Made by a program: the position numbers
Shown here: one piece after another, positions 3,001 through 6,000 of the stretch
How the letters are laid out: the number at the start of each line of letters is the position of its first letter
Position numbering within the stretch: the stretch's first letter is position 1
NCBI RefSeq assembly: GCF_002854065.1
Contig: NZ_CP024147.1
Source of the DNA: Escherichia coli
Lineage (GTDB): Bacteria; Pseudomonadota; Gammaproteobacteria; Enterobacterales; Enterobacteriaceae
Reading direction: 5' to 3' (one strand)
Length of the DNA stretch: 64,000 nucleotides

Positions 3001-6000
3001 TGTTGATAATCTTGTTGCCTTTGCCCTTCGACAGCTGCGGCAGATCACTTACCGGGAACATCAACATACGGCCTGCCTGAGTGATTGCCAGCAGCATATC
3101 GGAAGCATCTTCAATCACCACCGGCGGCATAACATGGGCATTTTCCGGTAAGGTGATCAAAGCCTTACCTGCACGGTTACGCGCCACCAGATCGTTAAAG
3201 GTGCAGACGAAACCGTAACCCGCATCGGAAGCCATCAGCAGTTTCTGATCGTCGCTTTCCATCAGCATATGGTCAACGGTCGCCCCAGGCGGCAACGTTA
3301 ATTTGCCGGTGAGCGGCTCGCCCTGACCACGCGCCGACGGCAGCGTAATCGGGTCGATGGCATAGCTACGACCGGTGGAATCAACAAACACTACCGGTTG
3401 GTTGCTCTTACCTTTCACCGCCGCTTTGAAGCTATCACCCGCTTTATAATTCAGGCCCGGCGCGTCGATATCATGGCCTTTAGCGCTGCGTACCCAGCCC
3501 ATCTGCGACAGCACAATGGTGACAGGTTCAGACGGCAGCATGTCGTGCTCGCTCATCGCTTTCGCTTCTTCGCGTTCCTGCAACGGCGAACGACGATCGT
3601 CACCGTAGGCTTGCGCGTCTGCCTGCAGTTCTTTCTTCAGCAGGTTATTCATTTTACGCTCGGAAGCCAAAATGCCCTGCAACTGGTCGCGCTCTTTTTC
3701 CAGCTCACTCTGCTCACCGCGAATCTTCATCTCTTCCAGTTTGGCAAGATGACGCAGTTTCAGTTCGAGGATCGCTTCCGCCTGGGTTTCCGTAAGGCCA
3801 AACCGCGACATCAGCGCCGGTTTCGGTTCATCTTCATTACGAATGATCTCAATCACTTCGTCGATATTGAGAAACGCCACCAGCAAACCTTCGAGGATAT
3901 GCAGGCGCTTGAGGACTTTCTCCAGACGATAGTTCAGTCGGCGGCGCACGGTATCGCGGCGGAACACCAGCCATTCGGAGAGGATTTCCAGCAGGTTTTT
4001 CACCGCCGGACGACCATCCAGACCGATCATATTGAGGTTAATGCGATAGCTCTTTTCCAGATCGGTGGTAGCGAAGAGGTGGTTCATCACCTGATCCATA
4101 TCCACGCGGTTGGAACGCGGCACAATCACCAGACGGGTCGGGTTCTCGTGGTCAGATTCATCGCGCAGATCGTCAACCATCGGCAGCTTTTTGTTGCGCA
4201 TTTGCGCAGCAATTTGCTCCAGTACGCGCGCACCTGAAACCTGATGCGGCAATGCGCTGATAACCACCGCGCCATCTTCTTTCTTCCACACCGCGCGCAT
4301 ACGCACTGAACCACGTCCGTTCTCGTAGATTTTACGGATCTCGGCGCGCGAAGTGATAATTTCCGCTTCAGTCGGATAATCCGGCCCCTGCACGATATCC
4401 AGCAGCTGATCGAGCGTGGTTTTCGGCTGGTCAATTAATGCGATTGCCGCCTGAGCCACTTCACGCAGGTTATGCGGTGGAATATCGGTCGCCATGCCGA
4501 CGGCAATTCCGGTGGTGCCGTTAAGCAAAATGTTTGGCAGACGGGCAGGTAGCATTTTCGGCTCCTGCAAAGTGCCGTCGAAGTTTGGCACCCAGTCAGC
4601 CGTCCCCTGCCCCAGCTCGCTCAATAGCAGCTCGGAATATTTCGACAACCGGGATTCGGTGTAACGCATTGCCGCGAACGATTTCGGATCGTCCGGCGCG
4701 CCCCAGTTCCCCTGACCATCAACCAGCGGATAACGGTAAGAGAACGGCTGCGCCATCAGGACCATCGCTTCATAACAGGCGCTATCGCCGTGCGGATGGT
4801 ATTTACCCAGTACGTCACCGACGGTACGGGCCGATTTTTTAAATTTGGCGCTGGCATTCAGGCCCAGTTCAGACATCGCATACACAATGCGGCGCTGAAC
4901 AGGTTTCAGACCATCACCAATAAACGGCAACGCACGGTCCATGATCACGTACATGGAGTAGTTTAAGTAGGCGTTTTCCGTAAATTCATGTAGCGCAAGG
5001 CGCTCTGCCATATCGCTCATTAATTCTGATTCCTCAACTTATTCGCCAGCCTTCAAAGGGGCAATATTGCCGGAGATACTACATTATCTGCCGCGTCGAG
5101 TCACAGGAGATCAGCGTGAATAGCGCCGCCGGACGTGCTCCGACGGCGATAAAGGCATCAATGTGCCTTGATATACAACTCTTTGCTGTAGACATAATCC
5201 TGGGGATTATGCAGCGGAAAACCGCCAACGTAGGGTTTAAGCAGTTTGATTAACGGCTGATAGTAGATAGGAATCAGCGGTGCCCGTTGGTTGATGATCA
5301 CTTCTGCCTGCTGATACAACGCATTACGCTTTGTCGCATCAGTGATCTGCGTGGCCTGGTTTAGTAAGGCGTCATACTGCGCATTTTTCCAGTGACCGAC
5401 GTTTTCTTCACTATCGCTTTTGAGCGTGTTCAGGAAGCTGGAAGCATCATTGTACGTCGCATCCCACGACTGCCGAGACAGCATGAAATCACCGGCTCGT
5501 CGGGCATCAAGATAGGTTTTCCACTCCATTGTGCGCAGCGTCACCTGTGCACCCAGCCATTTTTTCCATTCGGAAGACAACGCTATCGCGGTCTTTTCAT
5601 GCAGATCGTACTTGTTGTAGAACAGCTCAAAGCGTAGCGGATGAGAGGCGTCGTATCCCGCCTGTTTCAGCAAGGCTTTTGCCATCGCGACGCGCTCACT
5701 CATTGGCTTTTGCAGTTCATCGAACGTCGTCACGCTAAAGCCTTTTACCTCTGGCGGCGTCAGCGTGGTTGCGGGCGTCCTCAACCCCAGTACCTTTTGC
5801 GCAATAAGCTGTCGATCAACCGTAAGATATAGCGCCCGACGCACTCGCACATCGTTAAATGGCGGTTTCTCAAGGTTGAAGTTGTAATATTCGCTGTTCA
5901 GATGCGGAATAATTCGTAGCTCGCCAGGCAGTGATTTTTCAATGGCGGGAATTTGCTGCGCCGGAACCCAGGTGAGATCGACCTCTCCCGCGCGATAGCG

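Follow-up and report, generated by a model that had tools for sequence, protein, structure and literature searches.

The window, by which we mean the whole stretch of 64,000 nucleotides analysed here, carries parC, parE and tolC, and the features on which the analysis turns are the following.

2762..5020, minus strand: parC, encoding DNA topoisomerase IV subunit A (752 amino acids), the sole long open reading frame covering 4769..4783
5018..5020, minus strand: the ATG start codon of parC, with a GAGGA Shine-Dalgarno sequence upstream and an in-frame TAA at -21
4760..4807, minus strand: core of the quinolone resistance-determining region (QRDR), ParC residues 72 to 87, placed by translation and codon map
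4769..4783, minus strand: ParC codons 80 to 84 (S-A-C-Y-E), placed by codon map, within K-12 residues 64 to 102, which are identical
4781..4783, minus strand: Ser80, codon AGC (codon map)
4778..4780, minus strand: Ala81 (codon map)
4775..4777, minus strand: Cys82 (codon map)
4772..4774, minus strand: Tyr83 (codon map)
4769..4771, minus strand: Glu84, codon GAA (codon map)
4661..4663, minus strand: ParC codon 120, the catalytic tyrosine (AAMRY120TESR); residue 120 is Y, and the coordinates were obtained by codon arithmetic
18295..20187, minus strand: parE, encoding DNA topoisomerase IV subunit B (630 amino acids), from the open reading frame and the annotation of the collinear strain CUWW06
22906..24387, plus strand: tolC, encoding the outer-membrane channel of the AcrAB-TolC efflux pump; the gene is intact and encodes the same protein as in K-12

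The order of the genes (ftsP-plsC-parC-ygiS...qseBC-mdaB-ygiN...parE-yqiA-cpdA-yqiB-nudF-tolC) was the same as in K-12 and CUWW06, and the window belongs to the E. coli chromosome. Directly upstream of parC on the map lies ygiS (5158..6765, minus strand), a pseudogene of a periplasmic substrate-binding protein gene with a stop at 6166..6168, where codon 200 is TGA and K-12 has TGG (Trp); an internal stop is annotated at this gene in the near-identical CUWW06, and the gene is intact in XJ34. The AraC-family repressor gene ygiV (6874..7356, minus strand) is also a pseudogene, with TAA at codon 51 (7204..7206) where K-12 has CAA (Gln), and it too is annotated with an internal stop in CUWW06. It is mildly unusual for a single lineage to carry two neighboring nonsense pseudogenes. 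The MqsR/MqsA toxin-antitoxin pair, found between ygiS and ygiV in K-12, was absent from the window (approximately 6766..7950), as was ygiZ (approximately 9958..10068), which stands between qseC and mdaB in K-12. A 7.2-kb iron-siderophore uptake cluster occupied 11039..18231, between ygiN and parE, where K-12 carries no such cluster; it comprises genes for a MurR/RpiR regulator, a substrate-binding protein, two FecCD permeases, an ATPase and a TonB-dependent receptor, and 1,869 of 5,426 complete E. coli genomes (about a third) covered at least 80% of a 25-kb query containing it. Collinearity with CUWW06 places an FMN riboswitch ahead of ribB, and a pair of type I toxin genes of the Ibs family, at 29362..29510 (minus strand) and 32991..33425 (plus strand); all of them are ordinary in E. 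coli.

The right end of the window is taken up by a genomic island (53824..64000) inserted directly 3' of a tRNA with the anticodon CAT, called tRNA-Met by ARAGORN and tRNA-Ile by the RefSeq annotation, and the window parts from CUWW06 at about position 53,913. The island encodes an Ag43/Cah autotransporter adhesin (59063..61984, minus strand, 973 amino acids), a RadC/JAB protein and a GTPase. Judging from how an island with 97% similarity is annotated in strain 571, further products are a DUF4942 protein, a CbtA/CbeA toxin-antitoxin pair, an antirestriction protein and a DUF932 protein. The best megablast match to this island among complete RefSeq E. coli genomes reached only 97.2%, and related copies occurred at a median of five per genome.

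The product of parC scored 1425.7 bits against TIGR01062 (the parC_Gneg equivalog model, cutoff of 628.9), with profile positions 1 to 735 of 735 aligned, and the best solved structure by sequence was 1zvu, the E. coli ParC (1595 bits). By megablast, parC was matched in 5,425 of the 5,426 complete RefSeq E. coli genomes; all of the matches listed were annotated as "parC: DNA topoisomerase IV subunit A," and four genomes carried a nucleotide-identical (100%) parC. The catalytic Tyr120 was present within AAMRYTESR. ParC and GyrA are paralogues that have the HPHGD-S motif in common, and the protein matched gyrA models with an E value of 2e-184, as it would if the gene were gyrA or another type IIA topoisomerase A subunit. 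However, the scores against the two gyrA models were 614.8 (cutoff of 902) and 594.9 (cutoff of 877), both below the curated cutoffs, whereas the parC_Gneg score was more than twice its own. Additionally, the protein is 752 amino acids long compared with 875 for GyrA, is the same as the product of K-12 b3019 (parC), is encoded in the context plsC-parC-ygiS and carries Glu, as in ParC, at the acidic position where GyrA has Asp. An identity other than parC thus has next to no probability. Every defining feature of a Gram-negative topoisomerase IV subunit A that is testable in silico was found in this protein, which, given its 100% identity to K-12 ParC and to the crystallised 1zvu, would be expected to have decatenation activity.

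The numbering of the residues depends on the start codon. The ATG at 5020 is the earliest start possible in the parC frame, because the in-frame TAA lies 21 nucleotides upstream and makes a longer frame impossible. A second in-frame ATG is found at codon 4 (MSDM...), and the alignment to TIGR01062 begins only at ParC residue 5, both of which would fit a true start other than the ATG at 5020, with the residues called 80 and 84 then not being the canonical ones. However, canonical numbering is set by the 752-amino-acid K-12 protein (annotated as b3019 and beginning MSDMAERL), which starts at the same ATG, and the 40 nucleotides upstream of parC, including the GAGGA Shine-Dalgarno sequence, are those of K-12 MG1655. 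Furthermore, the ParC motif HPHGD-S-xxx-E can be aligned residue by residue with HPHGD-S83-xxx-D87 of GyrA (S83-AVY-D87), and even if translation of ParC began at Met4, the physical residues would be unchanged and convention would still name them 80 and 84. The offset arising from a different true start, against which the initial annotation had cautioned, was therefore not borne out, and we regard it as very improbable. Both the offset and the confusion of parC with gyrA were dismissed.

With the canonical numbering in place, positions 4769 to 4783 correspond exactly to codons 84 to 80 on the minus strand, and residues 72 to 87 of the ParC translation read GKYHPHGD-S80-ACY-E84-AMV; the placement of Ser80 and Glu84 and the QRDR string given in the initial annotation were both correct. 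The same annotation held that ParC contains no fluoroquinolone resistance substitution and proposed alignment with a reference ParC as a check. This claim stood, as the K-12 MG1655 protein, used as the wild-type reference for both ParC and ParE, was identical over its full length, with 0 differences across 752 residues in a position-by-position comparison. Residues G78, A56, S57 and A108, like all remaining ParC positions, were those of the K-12 wild type. The parC nucleotide sequence had 13 differences from K-12 MG1655 (99.4% identity), all of them synonymous, one of which falls in codon 91 within the QRDR region. Judged by this comparison, the ParC allele reads as wild type at the QRDR and throughout the protein. 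The analysis brought up no evidence against the wild-type reading of parC, for which expression was assessed by the identical 40 nucleotides upstream. The site is already known in kind, and the result is a routine, correct negative genotyping call with nothing new.

The partner subunit, ParE, is encoded in the same window. Its gene, a minor resistance locus that had been overlooked in the initial annotation, differed from that of K-12 at 52 nucleotides, all synonymous, so that the protein was identical, and positions 416, 420, 439, 444, 445, 458, 460, 464, 470, 475, 476 and 529 were all wild type when compared with K-12. That the 13 differences in parC and the 52 in parE are without exception synonymous is expected for essential genes under purifying selection. 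When both genes fall in one window, parE should be reported together with parC.

The frequency of the wild-type site was measured in 5,426 complete RefSeq E. coli genomes with 30-nucleotide probes over codons 78 to 87; as the megablast seed was 28 nucleotides, these probes report essentially exact matches only, and the probe for S80I (ATT) with E84V served as the positive control of the method. The wild type with AGC at codon 80, which is the form in the window, was present in 2,729 genomes, and the wild type with the synonymous AGT, a variant spotted by reading example matches, was present in a further 700, which places Ser80/Glu84 in at least 3,429 of the 5,426 genomes (63%). Longer probes of 57 nucleotides were rejected as a measure of the base rate in favor of the 30-nucleotide probes, since they were confounded by the synonymous AGC/AGT at codon 80; the exact 57-nucleotide sequence of codons 72 to 90 was found in 2,728 RefSeq genomes. 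Among the mutant alleles, S80I (ATC) with Glu84 was carried by 1,245 of the 5,426 genomes and S80I (ATT) with E84V (GTA) by 372, and the 30-nucleotide probe for S80I (ATC) with E84V (GTA) matched 0 of the 5,426. With these probes, the S80I E84V double mutants were thus found solely as ATT plus GTA, i.e., on the AGT background. Another 380 genomes fell outside the four probes that had matches and comprise S80R, any other alleles and the single genome lacking a parC match; S80R was read directly in L008, and S80I was read directly in L006. These results show that Ser80/Glu84 is the ancestral and majority state, and its natural frequency is probably higher than 63%, since the RefSeq collection is biased toward clinical and resistant isolates.

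Topoisomerase IV, assembled from the two subunits as ParC2ParE2, decatenates replicated daughter chromosomes through a transient, Tyr120-linked double-strand break. Fluoroquinolones wedge into the cleavage complex of this enzyme and stabilize it. In E. coli ParC, the drug bridge is anchored by Ser80 and, four positions further on, by the acidic Glu84. The contact between quinolone and enzyme is described as a water-metal ion bridge anchored by a conserved serine and an acidic residue (PMC3632122). On this model, a quinolone would be held to topoisomerase IV by the bridge on Ser80 and Glu84, and substitutions of the kind of S80I, S80R and E84V/G/K would break the bridge and thereby lower the affinity for the drug. 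The bridge mechanism and its phenotypic consequence are taken from the literature, while the identity, the numbering and the population frequency come from the comparisons made here. Because neither anchor is altered and both subunits are identical to those of K-12 over their full length, the site is almost certainly an ordinary, functional wild-type parC quinolone site, and topoisomerase IV should be fully drug sensitive.

The step from the enzyme to the phenotype of the strain is a separate one. Gyrase, not topoisomerase IV, is the primary target of quinolones in E. coli, and, as the first target is gyrase, a wild-type ParC is expected equally in a first-step gyrA S83L mutant or in a strain carrying qnr. 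The initial annotation had stated that gyrA is outside the window, and this proved right: six-frame translation of the 64 kb contained a single HPHGD motif, that of parC, and gyrA was not found in the annotation of the collinear CUWW06 over the window. In K-12, gyrA lies approximately 0.8 Mb from parC. The ParC residue altered most often in resistant E. coli isolates is S80, followed by E84, with S80I the commonest change, and ParC substitutions in this species occur together with GyrA substitutions, with susceptibility unchanged unless GyrA also is altered (PMC4673309). The same source puts the wild-type baseline of the ciprofloxacin MIC at about 0.016 mg/L. Since a change in ParC is secondary to one in GyrA in this species, the absence of a ParC substitution is not to be read as susceptibility.

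Thus, the strain could be fluoroquinolone nonsusceptible through determinants located outside the window while its ParC and ParE are wild type, the candidates being a first-step gyrA S83L mutation, the plasmid-borne genes qnr, aac(6')-Ib-cr and qepA, and efflux mutations in marR, acrR or soxR. Resistance is acquired in gyrA first, and parC would still be wild type in a mutant with a single gyrA step (PMC4673309); gyrA itself lies elsewhere in the genome. However, no resistance gene was found anywhere in the 64 kb, the island at 53.9 to 64 kb contained no quinolone-relevant gene, ParE and TolC were wild type, and S80I, normally part of high-level resistance, was absent from the parC of the window. 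In CUWW06, the nearest sequenced relative, the GyrA QRDR was wild type (S83 and D87) and D678E was the only difference of GyrA from K-12, although this strain is only a proxy and carries little weight, as resistance mutations arise on short timescales. All of these observations bear on the phenotype indirectly. We consider nonsusceptibility by such an outside route unlikely, but well above the probability of the two misreadings of the site dismissed above. It corresponds to a well-known genotype class, is compatible with the wild-type reading of parC and limits what follows from that reading. Wild-type ParC and ParE argue against high-level, multistep fluoroquinolone resistance, and wild-type ParC is silent on first-step gyrA mutations and plasmid-borne determinants. 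The overall phenotype hinges in the first place on gyrA, plasmid-borne genes and efflux regulators elsewhere play a part as well, and susceptibility is not inferable from the window.

Compared with known alleles and strains, the wild-type parC of the window was closest to WP_001281881.1, the parC of CUWW06, XJ34, XJ6-3 and 100416, to which it was nucleotide identical over 2,259 bp. CUWW06, isolated from wastewater in Thailand, was collinear with the window and had 10 single-nucleotide polymorphisms in the first 53.9 kb, but it lacked the island at the tRNA, while XJ34 differed by an IS200 adjoining parE. K-12 MG1655 ParC (b3019; NP_417491.1) had the same residues, start codon, upstream sequence and flanking genes plsC and ygiS, and differed only by the synonymous nucleotides in parC. 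The resistance alleles S80I, S80R and S80I E84V had the gene and the QRDR backbone in common with the window; however, their codon 80 was ATC or ATT (Ile) or CGT (Arg) and their codon 84, where altered, was GTA (Val), in contrast to AGC and GAA in the window. Finally, the paralogous site in E. coli GyrA is Ser83/Asp87, where the HPHGD-S-xxx-acidic motif likewise lies on the same helix and has the same role in quinolone binding (PMC3632122), but it belongs to a separate gene and locus, and its acidic residue is Asp where ParC has Glu.
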